A stretch of DNA of 64,000 bases. Origin: a virus. This document shows, piece by piece, positions 11,660 to 63,997 of this stretch. The stretch is taken from IMG/VR virus record IMGVR_UViG_3300026484_000402, positions 16,341 to 80,340 of that record; one strand, given 5' to 3'. Position numbers and translations under genes: made by a program. The stretch's first letter is position 1. Each line of letters begins with the position of its first letter. The notes below the pieces were generated by a model. The model was given only the letters and a program-made list of their open reading frames with translations. It did not search any database and was not told the origin of the DNA.

Positions 11660-11691
11660 TAGTCCTCCTTTCATAATATTCGAAACTGGGC

Positions 11692-11725
11692 TCATATATA
11701 TATAACATGAAAAAACCTTTTTTCC
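11692..11725 (-). promoter_or_regulatory. Candidate phage-specific promoter, copy 1
   Basis: Minus strand GGAAAA-AAGGTTT-TTTCATGTTA-TA-TATATAT-GA; matches the copies at 59711, 60015 and 62094. Confidence 0.6.
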
Positions 11726-12330
11726 TAATTTGCTGAACTATTAATTGTAGTTTCATTTAAAGAAGTAGCAATTTCAGATGTGGTTATTTTTGAGTTAATA
11801 GACGAAGGTGATAAAAAGGACGAAGAGCTAGGCGAGGTAGTGTTAAAATTAAAAGCCTTACTAGTGAATGTATATTTATTGAATCTTTTTGAATTATTCA
11901 TATTAAACGGAGAAACTGTTTTTGATTTATCTATTTCTATAAAACCTATAGAGTCTATTTCGTCGGCTTTAAAACAATATAATTTATCATATATTTTTTC
12001 GGCATTAAAAAACATATTCCTTCCGTCAACAGTAAACACAGATATTGGTATTGCATCAGGGTTTTTATTTTTTATATCATAAACAAATATATAATATGAA
12101 ATAGCCCCTTTTATCATTACTTGAAATGACTTTTCTCCCATTACTATATAGTATCCGTCATTTGCGGCCAAAAATTTAAGAATATACTTTCCGTTATATT
12201 CAGATTGCTCTAAATTTAATTCTGTAGATTTTTCTCCGTTAAAATATACAACTGTAATAGTCTTAGGGTTAGTGGTTTTAATAAACCCGTATAACCCTGT
12301 GATAGGAATAAAAGTTTTTATATGTTTCAA
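11725..12330 (-). CDS. Hypothetical beta-rich protein, probably virion-associated
   Basis: 201 aa; resembles the C-terminus of the upstream 562 aa protein; Ser/Thr-rich tail. Confidence 0.6.
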   Translation of the reverse strand: MKHIKTFIPITGLYGFIKTTNPKTITVVYFNGEKSTELNLEQSEYNGKYILKFLAANDGYYIVMGEKSFQVMIKGAISYYIFVYDIKNKNPDAIPISVFTVDGRNMFFNAEKIYDKLYCFKADEIDSIGFIEIDKSKTVSPFNMNNSKRFNKYTFTSKAFNFNTTSPSSSSFLSPSSINSKITTSEIATSLNETTINSSAN

Positions 12331-59655: not shown

Positions 59656-59705
59656 CTTTTTCCTTTTTTTAATAATTATATCGTCTTTATATATAAATAA
59701 CAAAA
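59638..59705 (-). repeat. Promoter-RBS-leader direct repeat, copy B
   Basis: TTTTGTTATTTATATATAAAGACGATATAATTATTAAAAAAAGGAAAAAAGATGTTGTATAAGATAGC. Confidence 0.75.
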
Positions 59706-59710
59706 CCTAA

Positions 59711-59745
59711 GGAAAATAACCACATTTCATGGTATGTATATATAA
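59711..59745 (+). promoter_or_regulatory. Candidate phage-specific promoter, copy 2
   Basis: GGAAAA-TAACCACA-TTTCATGGTA-TG-TATATAT-AA. Confidence 0.6.
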
Positions 59746-59806
59746 AAGAGAGATTTTGGGCTTACTCTCTATAATAAAAAAGCCGATACCAATTAAAAGG
59801 ATTATC

Positions 59807-59956: not shown

Positions 59957-60014
59957 TCCCTCCTCTTTTTTTAGTTACTATTTTCTAATTTTAACAATTA
60001 ATTTTTTTTGAAAA

Positions 60015-60032
60015 CACGGTATATATAAATGG
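60015..60032 (+). promoter_or_regulatory. Candidate phage-specific promoter, copy 3 (core only)
   Basis: CACGGTA-TA-TATAAAT-GG followed by a GCAGG/CCTGC hairpin. Confidence 0.5.
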
Positions 60033-60071
60033 AGCAGGCCATAATCCTGCAAAAAAATCAAAAGGAGAGAA

Positions 60072-60890
60072 ATGAAAACAACAAAAATTCTAAAATACGG
60101 AAAAAAAATCGCAGGTGAAACGAGAAAGGCTGATTTCTTGAGAGCTTTCGGAAGAGAAGTGGAAGTTACGAGAATAATAAGCTTCGGAGCATGTAACTTC
60201 CATTGCCCATATTGCAAAAGAGATTGTCAACTTGTAGACGGAAAGGGCAATCCAATTCGTGCTGAAGAGGTAAATTTCTCTGATATCCTAGCGGTAGTGG
60301 ATGATGCTATTGCAAAAGGTCAGAGGGTGAGGCTATCTGGCGGGGACCCAGTGATGTTCCCAAAAGAAAGTTTGGAGATTGCTAAATATACAATGGAAAA
60401 ATACGGGCAAAAAATATCTATAGCCCATAACGGTTCAGGTATGAGATTTGTAAAATCTCTTGCCCCTTACCTGGACTATGCGGCAATTGACTTAAAGGGG
60501 CATGATGGAAAAGAACTTGCCATGAGAGCGGGAATTCCTGAAAAAGTAGGAGATAAGATGCTAAAAAGCACTCTTGCAGTACAGGATTATCTCGCTTCTC
60601 AGGACATATTGGTAGATGTAAGAACGCCTGTGTTCGACACTACGACCCTAGACCATTTATATGCAATGGCAGAACAAATTGTCAAGGGCGGGGTAAAAAA
60701 CAAATTCTGGACTCTTAGAAAATACAACCCGGTCCGCTGGATTGACTGGGGAACAATTCCTCAGGAAACGCTGTTACAATACGCAGAAATAATCTCTAAA
60801 GAGTTTCCGGAACTCCCTATAGGTCTTCGCCTAAAATGGAGCGGGGGGTCAAAAGAATTTATAATATTGAAAGGAGGTAAAAGAATTTAA
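60072..60890 (+). CDS. Radical SAM protein (glycyl-radical activase / NrdG-like fold)
   Basis: GACNFHCPYC CX3CX2C motif, RLSGGDP, YAAIDLKG, VRTP. Confidence 0.88.
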   Translation: MKTTKILKYGKKIAGETRKADFLRAFGREVEVTRIISFGACNFHCPYCKRDCQLVDGKGNPIRAEEVNFSDILAVVDDAIAKGQRVRLSGGDPVMFPKESLEIAKYTMEKYGQKISIAHNGSGMRFVKSLAPYLDYAAIDLKGHDGKELAMRAGIPEKVGDKMLKSTLAVQDYLASQDILVDVRTPVFDTTTLDHLYAMAEQIVKGGVKNKFWTLRKYNPVRWIDWGTIPQETLLQYAEIISKEFPELPIGLRLKWSGGSKEFIILKGGKRI

Positions 60891-60951: not shown

Positions 60952-61125
60952 ATGAAAAAAAAAGTAAAAAATCTTTTTGATATTGTAATGGTTGTTCTTA
61001 TGTTTCCATTTGTTTTGATGGGGATAATGGTGGCATATACTTTTGCTACTATTGAATATGTTGTTGAACTTGTTTTTAAAGAAAGGAAAACAAATGATTT
61101 ACAAAATAGCAAGTCAAAAGATTGA
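60952..61125 (+). CDS. Small membrane protein, 57 aa (not in ORF track)
   Basis: AAGGAG RBS; MKKKVKNLFDIVMVVLMFPFVLMGIMVAYTFATIEYVVELVFKERKTNDLQNSKSKD; TATAAT upstream at 60921. Confidence 0.65.
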   Translation: MKKKVKNLFDIVMVVLMFPFVLMGIMVAYTFATIEYVVELVFKERKTNDLQNSKSKD

Positions 61126-62059
61126 AAAAAAAGCCATACTAGGTGAAGCAGCCATCGCTCTTGGCGCTCACCTTGCTCAAAATCAGGTTGTAAGAGGAAC
61201 TGCAGCAAAAGGAAGACTTGGAGAGCATTTAGCCTTAAGATTTTCTCCTAATTTATCTAGAAGACAAGCCGTTGTTAATGGAGGGGTAAATGCCATCTCT
61301 CCGGAAGTTCCTATTATAGAAAATGAGATTAGAGAATTTCTAGAAAAAGCAGACCTTAAGAATATGTCTCTTAGACAAAAAGCCGCTCTTAATTTTTTTG
61401 CTAAAGGTGACTGGCTAAAATTAAGAAAGAGAAATTTATTAGAACACATACATCCTAAATATGGAAAACTTCTGCAAGAACTGCCTGATGAGTCTGTAAA
61501 GAGGCTTCAAGAAACTTATAAAAGTGGCCCTCTAGGGCAAATATCATCAGATATGGTGAACTATTTAAAAAAGAATAAAGATGCAAGAAGAAATTTTTCA
61601 CTTGAGAAAAAACATAAAAAACTCGAACTTACTTCCGAAATAGCTAATAATGCAGCACTAGGAACAATTGACCCTGTTATTCCATTGTTTAATGGTGTTA
61701 AAAGATTTGGAGCATCCAAACTAGGAAATAACAATAAATTTATAGGAGAAACAAGAAAACAATTAAGAGACACTATGGTTGAACATCCAGCATATAAAGA
61801 CATGGATAAAGGTTTGAGGGGCGAGGCTTTATCAAGAAGAGAAAAAAATTACGCATATAATGTAGTAAATCCAATAACTGGACATCTAAGAGAATTAAGT
61901 AATGTGCTAGGTCAGGAAGTGGCGCAACACAAGCCTGAATATGTCCCTTTGATAAGGCAAACAGCGAAAGATGCAGATTCAAGGGTAGCCGGTCCTATTA
62001 GAAGAAAATTATCTCTCTTAAAAGAAAAAATGCCTTCTATAAGAAAGAAAAGAACTTAA
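61094..62059 (+). CDS. Basic putative virion internal protein with an MIYKIA leader
   Basis: Start moved to 61094 (AAGGA RBS): MIYKIASQKIEKKAILGEAAIALG. Confidence 0.7.
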   Translation: MIYKIASQKIEKKAILGEAAIALGAHLAQNQVVRGTAAKGRLGEHLALRFSPNLSRRQAVVNGGVNAISPEVPIIENEIREFLEKADLKNMSLRQKAALNFFAKGDWLKLRKRNLLEHIHPKYGKLLQELPDESVKRLQETYKSGPLGQISSDMVNYLKKNKDARRNFSLEKKHKKLELTSEIANNAALGTIDPVIPLFNGVKRFGASKLGNNNKFIGETRKQLRDTMVEHPAYKDMDKGLRGEALSRREKNYAYNVVNPITGHLRELSNVLGQEVAQHKPEYVPLIRQTAKDADSRVAGPIRRKLSLLKEKMPSIRKKRT

Positions 62060-62093
62060 TTAGCATTTATTTCTTTATTTCCTAGTTTTTTTG

Positions 62094-62128
62094 GGAAAAA
62101 TAAGCATTTTCGTGGTAAATATATATGA
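62094..62128 (+). promoter_or_regulatory. Candidate phage-specific promoter, copy 4, upstream of the large RNA
   Basis: GGAAAA-ATAAGCAT-TTTCGTGGTA-AA-TATATAT-GA. Confidence 0.6.
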
Positions 62129-63320
62129 AGCAGGAAGATTGCTTCAACGAGAAGGAAAACTCGTAAAAACCCCATGGACGTCCAGGTGACTCCCGCCTGT
62201 CAATAAGACAGGAGCGGTGTATAATAAGGCGGAGTGTCTAACACTAGGGCGTAAAAGATGGCGTGACGTGACCATCGTTCCATGGTATCTTCATTCGTAC
62301 AGGTTAGAGACCTGAGTCAAGTCTCTAAACTGACTCCATCCGTACGTGAGGTGTCTAGCGCCAGTAATGGTAAGCGGCCGAGTCTCGTAATGAGCACGGA
62401 GGGATAGGGAGAGCGACAGCGGGCTCCTTATCCAACGACAACTGGGAGAGACCAGTCGGGCAGGCTCCGCACTAGCTCGTTAACAGGTGCAGAGCGGAGA
62501 GGTGCAGGAAGGGCTGTGAAAGCCTGCACGCAGCGGAAACCTGGAGGGAGCCAGGTGATAAAAGAGGGTGCCTAGCAATCGTTTCCGCCGTCGTAAGACG
62601 GATTGCGGGGGCACCTGAGGAGATGAGACGCCGTAGCTAGTAACTACGGTTCCCGTAGAGTCGCAGGGAGTAAGTTCTCATCTCTAAGAGCGACCAAGAG
62701 GGGTTTGGCGCACGCCATAGAGGCGACTCTATGGTAGCCGCAATGCGCCTTGGGCTGACTAGCAATCAGTCCCTTGCACAGGATTTCCTGTGTAAGTAAT
62801 AAAGCCTTTTATAAAGTTCATTAAGTGAATTTTGTAAGAGGCTTTTATGCACTATGGTCTGCCTGTGGACCATTGAGCGAGCCTCACGCACACAGGCTAG
62901 TCAGACCCGAGACGATAAAATGCGGGTTGCGGAAGGTATCTGCCTTTGTACGGTGACACCCGACCTACAAAGGATAAACAGATGTCTTCCTAGATGCTTG
63001 CCCAGGACTGGTAACAGGTCCGGTGCCTGCATTAGCAGGTTCAAAGGGAACAGGGTTGACGCCGGGAATAAAGCCGGGGGACTTATCAGTTCCACCTTAG
63101 AGAACTGATTGTAGGAATGCATAAAATTCCAGAGCCCTAACAGACGGCCTCTGAATGAAATAGTCTGCTCATCGGATTCTTATGACCCTAAGTTCTTCCG
63201 ATGTAAAATAAGAAAAGAACCAGGGCGTCTCAGCTTGATACTGCATAGGAGTAGCGCACCTATGTAAGTCAAGTTGGGGCAGAAAAATAAATCCATCAAG
63301 GTGGGTTTATCTTTCTGCCT
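62127..63320 (+). ncRNA. Candidate large structured non-coding RNA, about 1.2 kb; family not identified
   Basis: Sharp GC rise, no credible ORF, more than 20 hairpins with G-U pairs on the + strand, GNRA loops (GTAA, GCGA), several loop-to-distal pairings; bounded by a promoter motif and a terminator; next to tRNAs. Confidence 0.8.
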
Positions 63321-63330
63321 GTGAAAAAAT

Positions 63331-63369
63331 AAAAAAGGAGAGGGGTCGAATAACTTCTCTCTTTTTTTT
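63331..63369 (+). terminator. Rho-independent terminator
   Basis: AAAAAAGGAGAGGGGT-CGAATA-ACTTCTCTCTTTTTTTT. Confidence 0.8.
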
Positions 63370-63430
63370 AGATTAAATTTTTTATATTGCTTTCATTTCG
63401 TACTAGAAGCAATAAAAGAAACTCTCTCTA

Positions 63431-63459
63431 TTGACATTGTGTGCGTAATATCGTATAAT
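63431..63459 (+). promoter_or_regulatory. Consensus sigma-70 promoter for the tRNA cluster
   Basis: TTGACA (63431-63436), 17 nt spacer, TATAAT (63454-63459). Confidence 0.85.
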
Positions 63460-63520
63460 TTCTTTGCTGAAAGTCAATAGCAATAATTTTCTTTCCATAA
63501 CTCTCCTTTTGGAGAGGTAC

Positions 63521-63608
63521 GGTAGAGTGGTCGAGTGGTTGAAGGCAGCCGGTTGCTAACCGGTCGAGGGTAACGCCTCCGTAGGTTCGAATCCTACCTC
63601 TACCGCCA
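63521..63608 (+). tRNA. tRNA-Ser(GCT)
   Basis: GGTAGAG/CTCTACC acceptor; GCCGG-TTGCTAA-CCGGT anticodon arm; long variable arm; TTCGAAT; CCA encoded. Confidence 0.95.
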
Positions 63609-63611
63609 TTA

Positions 63612-63733
63612 TGACGGCCCTGGTTGGTAATGGAGTATTGGTAAGTTCGAAGGCGTGCAATATCCTAGGTAAAAGCGCTATTGAATTTGGGCTTATCAAG
63701 AACAGGGGAGTTCGATTCTTCCCGCCGTTACCG
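63612..63733 (+). ncRNA. tRNA-like RNA with no canonical anticodon arm
   Basis: TGACGGC/GCCGTTA acceptor-like stem; GGGAG-TTCGATT-CTTCC T-arm; 14 bp helix in place of the anticodon arm; ends ACCG. Confidence 0.65.
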
Positions 63734-63737
63734 AAAT

Positions 63738-63828
63738 AGAGGGTTGGCCGAGTGGTTGAAGGCGACGGTCTTGAAAACCGTTGGACGTGATGAACGTTCC
63801 GTGGGTTCGAATCCCACACCCTCTGCCA
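63738..63828 (+). tRNA. tRNA-Ser(TGA)
   Basis: AGAGGGT/ACCCTCT; ACGGT-CTTGAAA-ACCGT; long variable arm; CCA encoded. Confidence 0.95.
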
Positions 63829-63833
63829 TTTAT

Positions 63834-63909
63834 TGGGCGGTCGCCAAGTTGGTAAGGCACCAGACTTTGACTCTGGCATTCGTAGGTTCGAGTCCTGCCC
63901 GCCCAGCCA
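63834..63909 (+). tRNA. tRNA-Gln(TTG)
   Basis: TGGGCGG/CCGCCCA; CCAGA-CTTTGAC-TCTGG; CCA encoded. Confidence 0.95.
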
Positions 63910-63910
63910 T

Positions 63911-63997
63911 GGAGCGATGCGCCGAATTGGTAAGGCAGCGGACTGTAAATCCGTGTCCCTAACGGGAATGGTAGTTCGAGTCTACCTCGCTCCACCA
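63911..63997 (+). tRNA. tRNA-Tyr(GTA)
   Basis: GGAGCGA/TCGCTCC; GCGGA-CTGTAAA-TCCGT; variable arm; ACCA end. Confidence 0.93.

Follow-up and report, generated by a model that had tools for sequence, protein, structure and literature searches.

A question raised by the 3′ end of the window, as the whole 64,000-nt stretch of DNA analysed here is called, is what is encoded by about 1.2 kb of unusually G+C-rich sequence that lies between an orphan protein gene and a cluster of tRNA genes. This window makes up the final 64 kb of an IMG/VR virus record of 80,340 bp (G000; CheckV 43% complete), whose genes include a primase, a GroEL-like chaperonin and an RNA-polymerase beta-like subunit only ~30% identical to its counterparts in 180-kb Salmonella and Vibrio phages, and near-identical DNA is present in hydrothermal-vent metagenomes. 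Over positions 62100-63300 the G+C content is 0.45-0.60 (0.595 at its upper end) vs 0.295 for the whole record, and the tRNA cluster is the sole other G+C-rich island in that record. An earlier note, made from the sequence alone, had described this jump to about half, had seen no credible open reading frame beneath it and had proposed a single, densely paired noncoding RNA of a new class or a longer relative of GOLLD and ROOL.

The RNA family considered here consists of three loci, of which the window is one. The second, L015, is a metagenome contig of 5,521 nt that was recovered through ORF338, the gene directly upstream of the block; it represents a variant, seen among metagenome contigs over the region, in which 62296-62888 is swapped for 103 other letters. 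The third is carried by G002, a phage whose complete genome of 161,461 bp has terminal repeats; it was found by two 15-mers from the 3′ part of the RNA, and its copy is 98.6% identical to that of G000. In exact-pattern scans of viral and genome contigs with sequences from each of the three parts of the RNA, referred to below as modules A, B and C (Table 1), G002 was the sole true match, and the other 15-21-mer matches showed no further alignment to the RNA. Distant-mode blastn against 50,697 GenBank phage records gave no match to the RNA, and the C core was not found by BLAST or by covariance model R1 in four distant RNA-polymerase relatives (G003-G006), all of which are fragments. A further complete phage of 176,653 bp (G001), reached via the primase of G000, is collinear with G000 at ~82% nucleotide identity as far as window position 60889. 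The RNA is missing from G001: neither BLAST nor a covariance model of its core finds it there, only the promoter motif matches, and the only G+C island of that phage is its tRNA cluster, which is located elsewhere in the genome.

Table 1. Features in and around the structured RNA region, in window coordinates
Feature	Position	Strand	Remarks
ORF338, orphan protein gene	61043..62059	+	directly 5′ of the RNA; linked to module A in window and L015
Promoter motif P1, TTTGGGAAAAATAAGCATTTTCGTGGTAAATATATATGAA	62090..62126	+	42-nt motif directly upstream of the RNA
Module A, 5′ domain	62127..62295	+	two short 5′ hairpins, then a branched domain
A/B junction	62296..62307	+	similarity to L015 stops, similarity to G002 starts
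Module B, ~490 nt, 55-60% G+C	62308..62797	+	at least 13 hairpins; GUAA, GCGA and GUGA tetraloops; two CUAGYAA heptaloops
Module C, conserved 3′ core	62798..63320	+	in all three loci
C-core junction domain	62999..63227	+	invariant apical loops with covarying stems beneath
Intrinsic terminator	63331..63369	+	16-bp stem, 6-nt loop, U-run; -17.3 kcal/mol
Perfect sigma-70 promoter, TTGACA-17-TATAAT	63431..63459	+	precedes the tRNA island
tRNA island: Ser-GCU, Ser-UGA, Gln, Tyr	63521..63997	+	runs off the contig end; in the cassette common to G002

The block has no credible open reading frame. The longest one inside it is 84 aa (62854-63108), a frame that is disrupted in L015 by indels of 2, 1 and 1 nt. 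Between the window and L015 the indels measure 2, 1, 1 and 1 nt, none of which is divisible by three, and there is no conserved open reading frame; the region is therefore non-coding, as had been thought. Its folding is of a different order from that of its surroundings. When compared with dinucleotide shuffles, 200-nt windows in 62400-63400 give folding z scores of -2 to -9.5, vs values between +0.7 and -1.8 for most such windows in the flanking coding DNA, where two windows at 60400-60699 deviate (z -3.1 and -4.7). Folded whole, 62100-63380 reaches a minimum free energy of -508.9 kcal/mol on the + strand and -438.9 kcal/mol on the - strand, a difference of 70 kcal/mol in favour of the + strand, and the modules folded separately do nearly as well (-54.5 kcal/mol for A, -209.1 for B and -202.0 for C). 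All ten hairpins that the earlier note had listed are in the sequence at the positions given. GUAA occurs 14 times in the RNA, vs 6.0 expected (z 3.5), and several of the copies cap helices as tetraloops, among them those at 62364, 62593 and 63011. Loops of the GCGA and GUGA types are predicted as well, as are two CUAGYAA heptaloops, and the excess of GUAA is a hint of a tertiary fold. The idea that the RNA acts as a ribosome sponge was considered and dropped, as Shine-Dalgarno-like motifs are not enriched in it (z<1).

Whether this pairing has been maintained by selection was examined with a non-circular test, in which the structure was predicted from the window alone and the natural substitutions were then scored against it. 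Of the pairs affected by substitutions in L015, 21/25 are kept, nine of them via double compensatory changes; the chance level, obtained by random relocation of the substitutions, is 41%, and 0/2000 trials reach the observed value. The substitutions in G002 keep 9/12 affected pairs, where 51% would be expected (p about 0.01). When the same changes are read on the - strand, only 15/25 pairs (L015) and 6/12 pairs (G002) are kept, and because the G-U wobble changes fit the + strand only, the strand of the RNA is + and hairpins at the level of DNA are disfavoured. The suggestion that G-U mismatches betray selection on the + strand is thus borne out by substitutions in two relatives. RNAalifold applied to module C gives 164 pairs, 24 of them with double-sided changes; 10 of these 24 sit in the hairpin 62801-62846, where the L015 sequence is almost wholly replaced. 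When the C core is aligned to its covariance model, 97.8% of cells are paired, vs 29-47% with the partners slid, six pairs carry double changes, and 0/500 shuffles reach the observed pairing. In these automatic counts the helix 63085-63108 is one column out of register for L015; read in register, ATCAGTTC/GAACTGAT becomes CTTGGTTC/GAGCCAAG in L015, which adds three further double changes. It has thereby been shown that the secondary structure of the + strand RNA is under purifying selection, decisively so for module C.

For the two upstream modules the record of change is shorter. Between module B of the window and that of G002 there is one compensatory pair (62315/62335), along with three changes (62407, 62551 and 62653) in which pairing survives by a switch to or from G-U wobble, and two loops stay within the GNRA class despite substitution (GCGA to GCAA at 62725, GCAA to GUAA at 62763). 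Module A, which is common to the window and L015 and missing in G002, differs between its two copies by 2 substitutions, both at unpaired positions, and its structure is predicted from folding energy (z about -2.5). Covariation is thin in B and absent in A because there are only three loci, two of them 98.6% identical. One-strand compensatory and wobble changes beyond chance, which are the generic mark of a structured noncoding RNA, are accordingly strong in C and weak in B. Pairings between modules fare differently: two predicted long-range B-C pairs, 62530-62930 and 62762-62897, were rejected when changes in G002 were found to break them, and no inter-module pair has covariation support in the three loci.

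The arrangement of the modules differs from locus to locus. In the window, P1 is followed by A, B, C, the terminator and the tRNAs. In L015, ORF338 and P1 are followed by A and then directly by a diverged C, ~87-89% identical to that of the window, after which come ~200 nt of structured RNA and an open reading frame, with neither terminator nor tRNAs. In G002, a different promoter, of the extended -10 type (TTGATATAAT), leads into B and C, after which come the terminator and the same tRNA island; A and ORF338 are both missing. Module B is thus common to the window and G002 and missing in L015. Since C recurs in each of the three loci and A and B vary, C can be taken as the constant core, and the RNA has been shown by these sequence comparisons to be modular, with three separable parts, a conserved C and variable 5′ parts A and B. 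The earlier description of a single RNA of 1.2 kb therefore holds for the structured region itself, and has to be given up as regards a fixed unit, the relatives being A+C (L015) and B+C (G002). The joint between A and B in the window is real, given that an independently assembled contig (run X2) spans the junction over 61803-62387 without differences. The ~200 nt that follow C in L015 (1926-2124), here called module D, form hairpins at ~50% G+C between C and ORF106, and have no counterpart in the window.

Within module C, a long AU-rich hairpin, H1 (62801-62846), is followed by H2, H3 and H4, the multi-helix junction domain and two terminal hairpins. H2 has a conserved loop, UGCCURUG; a pseudoknot between this loop (UGCCUGUG) and a downstream CACAGGC was considered and set aside, as the changes in G002 and L015 weaken it and do not compensate. 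In the junction domain the invariant apical loops are GUUCCACCUUAG at 63089-63100 and UUAUGACCCUAAGUUCU at 63181-63197, and these two loops hold a 5-nt complementarity, CUUAG/CUAAG. A loop-loop contact, whether intramolecular or intermolecular, is a reasonable guess.

The history of the region is one of exchange. Over 1,695 nt, from window position 62308 to the contig end at 64000, the sequence matches G002 at 98.6% identity, and this block takes in modules B and C and the terminator, together with the sigma-70 promoter and the tRNAs. Elsewhere the two phages have no more than six proteins in common, which are 26-50% identical, and hardly resemble each other in nucleotide sequence, and the presence of such a block in otherwise unrelated phages shows a recent exchange of a cassette, presumably between phages of the same host. 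A second, short stretch with 93.9% identity over 310 nt is found between G000 1-310, which lies upstream of the window, and G002 146128-146437, and suggests that exchange between these two phages has been repeated. In L015 the block from ORF338 through the RNA to ORF106 and ORF126 is inserted with respect to G001, and synteny with that phage returns immediately behind it, which places the RNA in a hypervariable accessory region; that the RNA itself is accessory follows also from its absence in G001, the closest complete relative. The neighbours of the RNA tell little about it. ORF106 of L015 is STIV B116-like, and the others are without an informative family. ORF338, which lies upstream of the RNA in L015 as in the window and is missing from G001 and from the G002 locus, has no relatives among viral contigs, matches only its own 2-member cluster in a search of 5.8 billion clustered proteins, and gives no match in Pfam, PDB or PHROG. 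Its C-terminus is very basic, and a weak match (30% over 159 aa) is seen at G002 101401-101868.

The RNA is bounded by predicted transcription signals. Within the window the P1 motif follows the pattern TTTGGGAAAAATAA..TTTCGTGGTA.ATATATATGAA, and in the wider phage group it takes the form GGAAAAATAA-N5-(C)ATTTC-RTGGTAT-RTATATATGAAR upstream of genes. Further copies are found in G000 at 76069, 76356 and 28048(-), which correspond to window 59697-59747, 59984-60034 and 11690-11740(-), in G001 at 109231, 109864, 113928 and 58412(-), and in L015 at 1207 and 4525. This recurrence before genes in G000, G001 and L015 identifies the motif as a predicted promoter of the phage family and not a chance match. 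It is a poor match to the sigma-70 consensus and was not called as a sigma-70 site by a promoter scan; transcription from it may depend on an RNA polymerase of the phage itself, and we take it to resemble the TATG-type promoters of phiKZ-like phage polymerases. At the other end, the intrinsic terminator, which a simple consensus scan misses, has an identical copy in G002 and no counterpart in L015. The region had been said to start right after a promoter motif and to end at a terminator, and this is the case, with the terminator lying just beyond 63320, where the RNA had been taken to end. The tRNA cluster begins 200 nt 3′ of the RNA. Proximity to tRNAs, which had also been pointed out, holds in the window and in G002, which share it as one cassette and so count as a single observation, and does not extend to the third locus, L015, where no tRNAs are nearby. 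In the island itself, the 127-nt spacer between the two tRNA-Ser genes (63613-63732) is reported by ARAGORN, at a lowered threshold only, as a tRNA-Ser(CGA)-like gene whose anticodon loop would hold a 39-nt intron, with 6 bp in the acceptor stem and a good T-arm; the spacer is identical in G002, and one of similar length occupies the same place in G001.

These phages also carry a smaller structured element. A conserved 5′ leader of ~130 nt is found at L003 1545-1640 (G001), L015 4545-4640 and L073 ~3965-3870 (-) (G002), with the sequence GCGACCURUGGYGCCCG..GGGGUAAA..GAGCCAYAGGCAGGGU..CCCUGAUGCC, and precedes a small gene whose product starts MKY(T/S)(L/I)KNLKV. One of its helices shows a compensatory change, CCUAUGGC/GCCAUAGG to CCUGUGGC/GCCACAGG, and no Rfam match was obtained for it; on this sequence evidence it may be a separate new cis-regulatory RNA. 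Single hairpins also recur. The terminal hairpin motif of module C, (U)CCAUCAAGGUGGGUU (63287-63302), is found again in G002, at L073 ~3855-3835 and 3050-3030 (-), where the copies lie just upstream of the ribosome-binding sites of two small genes, and a related hairpin, GUUCAUUAAGUGAAU (62816-62830), recurs in an intergenic RNA of G001 (L003 1900-1915).

The comparison with described RNA families that the earlier note had called for was made with cmscan. At the gathering score, Rfam 15 yields only the four tRNAs, and at E<=10 there is only noise, and no family match, over 61900-63520. GOLLD (RF02032; gathering score 150 bits) has no row on the RNA at E<=10, and its model, run over the whole record, gives only 10-bit noise elsewhere (G000 70639-70738). 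ROOL (RF03087; gathering score 99.1 bits) likewise has no row at E<=10; a direct search with the ROOL model found no match and was silent on control genomes as well, so that for this family the cmscan result at E<=10 is the informative test. As the model matches that define GOLLD and ROOL fail, the RNA belongs to neither family, and the notion of a longer relative of the two has to be abandoned. Intron_gpI, Intron_gpII and group-II-D1D4 give no match at E<=10, no Rfam match to RNase P RNA or tmRNA was found, and ARAGORN finds no tRNA or tmRNA inside the RNA, in line with the earlier failure to recognize hallmarks of these molecules by eye. What stands of the original proposal is the alternative of a new class of large phage RNA, in that a structured noncoding RNA is encoded on the + strand and no described family matches it.

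Taken together, we consider it probable that the region encodes a new large structured noncoding RNA of vent jumbo phages, which is modular, accessory and predicted to be made as one transcript that acts in trans. The main rival, to which we give some weight while regarding it as doubtful, holds that A, B and C each work alone, as smaller structured RNAs set in a row, the 1.2 kb being a co-transcript or a product of recombination. That the modules occur in differing combinations, that each folds nearly as well alone, and that the A-B join of the window looks like a recombination junction would all be expected in such a case, and the lack of any covarying inter-module pair, both long-range pairs that varied being broken, means that the modules may be separate units or may be processed apart. 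However, neither a promoter nor a terminator lies between the modules, B and C of G002 are contiguous behind a single promoter, and in the three loci C is never seen without a structured 5′ partner. A conserved 3′ region joined to a variable 5′ region is, moreover, also the pattern of GOLLD, which is nevertheless one RNA (bioRxiv 10.1101/2024.12.08.627333).

A very long structured 5′ leader or cis-regulator, from which transcription would read through to the tRNAs in the window and to the open reading frames in L015, seems to us improbable. The RNA of L015 runs into ORF106 without a terminator, which is as compatible with a leader as with a free RNA, and these phages do place conserved structured leaders between P1 and small genes, as described above. 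Against this, the strong terminator in the window and in G002, and the perfect sigma-70 promoter that the tRNAs have to themselves, make a leader less likely in the window; folds of 0.7-1.2 kb with GNRA-rich multi-junctions far exceed known leaders, and there is no match to a riboswitch or T-box model. A mobile ribozyme, either an intron-like RNA of group I or II without an open reading frame or another self-splicing or self-cleaving RNA, has very little probability in our view, even if size, GNRA tetraloops and multi-helix junctions recall intron cores and a possible pseudoknot (CAGAG..CAGAC..CUCUG..GUCUG) can be drawn at 63130-63168. The block is clearly mobile, and a ribozyme would explain the transfer of the cassette; yet the transferred block also holds the terminator, the promoter and the tRNAs, which points to ordinary recombination and not intron homing. 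Further, no intron, RNase P or ribozyme model scores at E<=10, no intron-encoded protein is present, and no gene is interrupted, the RNA being preceded by a stop codon and a promoter and followed by a terminator. Hardly any credence can be given to the reading that the region is not an RNA at all and instead contains inverted repeats acting at the level of DNA, as at a packaging site or an origin, or the decayed remains of G+C-rich coding DNA from a foreign source. Its high G+C content within a hypervariable region would fit, as would the ~50% G+C of neighbouring open reading frames of L015, but the wobble changes that preserve pairing on the + strand only, at least nine double compensatory changes, the conserved identity of GNRA loops, the lengths of the indels and the want of a conserved reading frame all speak against it.

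On the preferred reading of one large trans-acting RNA, a transcript of ~1.24 kb would run from P1 (start at about 62125) to the intrinsic terminator (63369) and would fold into a stable, compact molecule. Module C, with its multi-helix junction, GNRA tetraloops and invariant apical loops, would be the functional core, the apical loops probably making tertiary or intermolecular contacts, and A and B would serve as peripheral domains open to exchange. By analogy with GOLLD and ROOL, the RNA may form a higher-order particle with a role in translation, tRNAs or counter-defence. A bolder version, which we put forward tentatively and think unlikely as it stands, is that it represents a third giant class of phage RNA beside those two, exceeding 1 kb, made up of the constant core and its changeable outer domains, mobile with the tRNA island between unrelated jumbo phages of vent bacteria, and assembled through its invariant apical loops into a higher-order particle that acts on tRNAs, translation or host defence. 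To our knowledge, very few natural RNAs of such size and complexity exist outside ribosomes and introns. The natural swaps A+B+C, A+C and B+C amount to ready-made deletion variants for structural and functional work, and the origin of the RNA in a low-G+C phage of hydrothermal-vent metagenomes suits it to in vitro folding and cryo-EM if it proves stable. The 98.6%-identical cassette, in turn, means that such RNAs are exchanged as accessory modules along with tRNAs.

Several known systems invite comparison. Group I and II introns of phages are similar in size range, GNRA tetraloops and compact multi-helix cores, and differ in having exons and intron-encoded proteins, neither of which is seen here, as well as in their models, which do not match. 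OLE, HEARO, raiA and other large bacterial noncoding RNAs are likewise large, G+C-rich relative to the genome and folded with multiple junctions, with functions known in part at most, but these are cellular RNAs with oap genes or IS605-type open reading frames nearby, which are absent here, and no model of them matches. Closer parallels are offered by GOLLD and ROOL, both of which form nanocages. ROOL, which phages and prophages encode, is likewise large and structured, often lies near tRNA islands and has no known protein partner or function (bioRxiv 10.1101/2024.12.08.627333); it resembles the present RNA in these respects, although it is ~580 nt long, has another architecture and has a model that does not match. 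GOLLD differs in that no homology of sequence or structure to it can be detected and in that the present RNA is longer (1.2 kb) and is hosted by vent phages of ~30% G+C. It is similar in being phage-encoded, very large and ornate, in adjoining a tRNA island (here in 2/3 loci, which share one cassette), in its patchy distribution among related phages, which marks it as accessory, and in the layout of a conserved 3′ and a variable 5′ part, represented here by a constant C with A and B swapped, a likeness that is one of analogy and not homology. Since GOLLD and ROOL share the setting of phage and tRNA island, an unrelated third family in the same place would point to a functional, and not an accidental, association of giant RNAs with tRNA islands.
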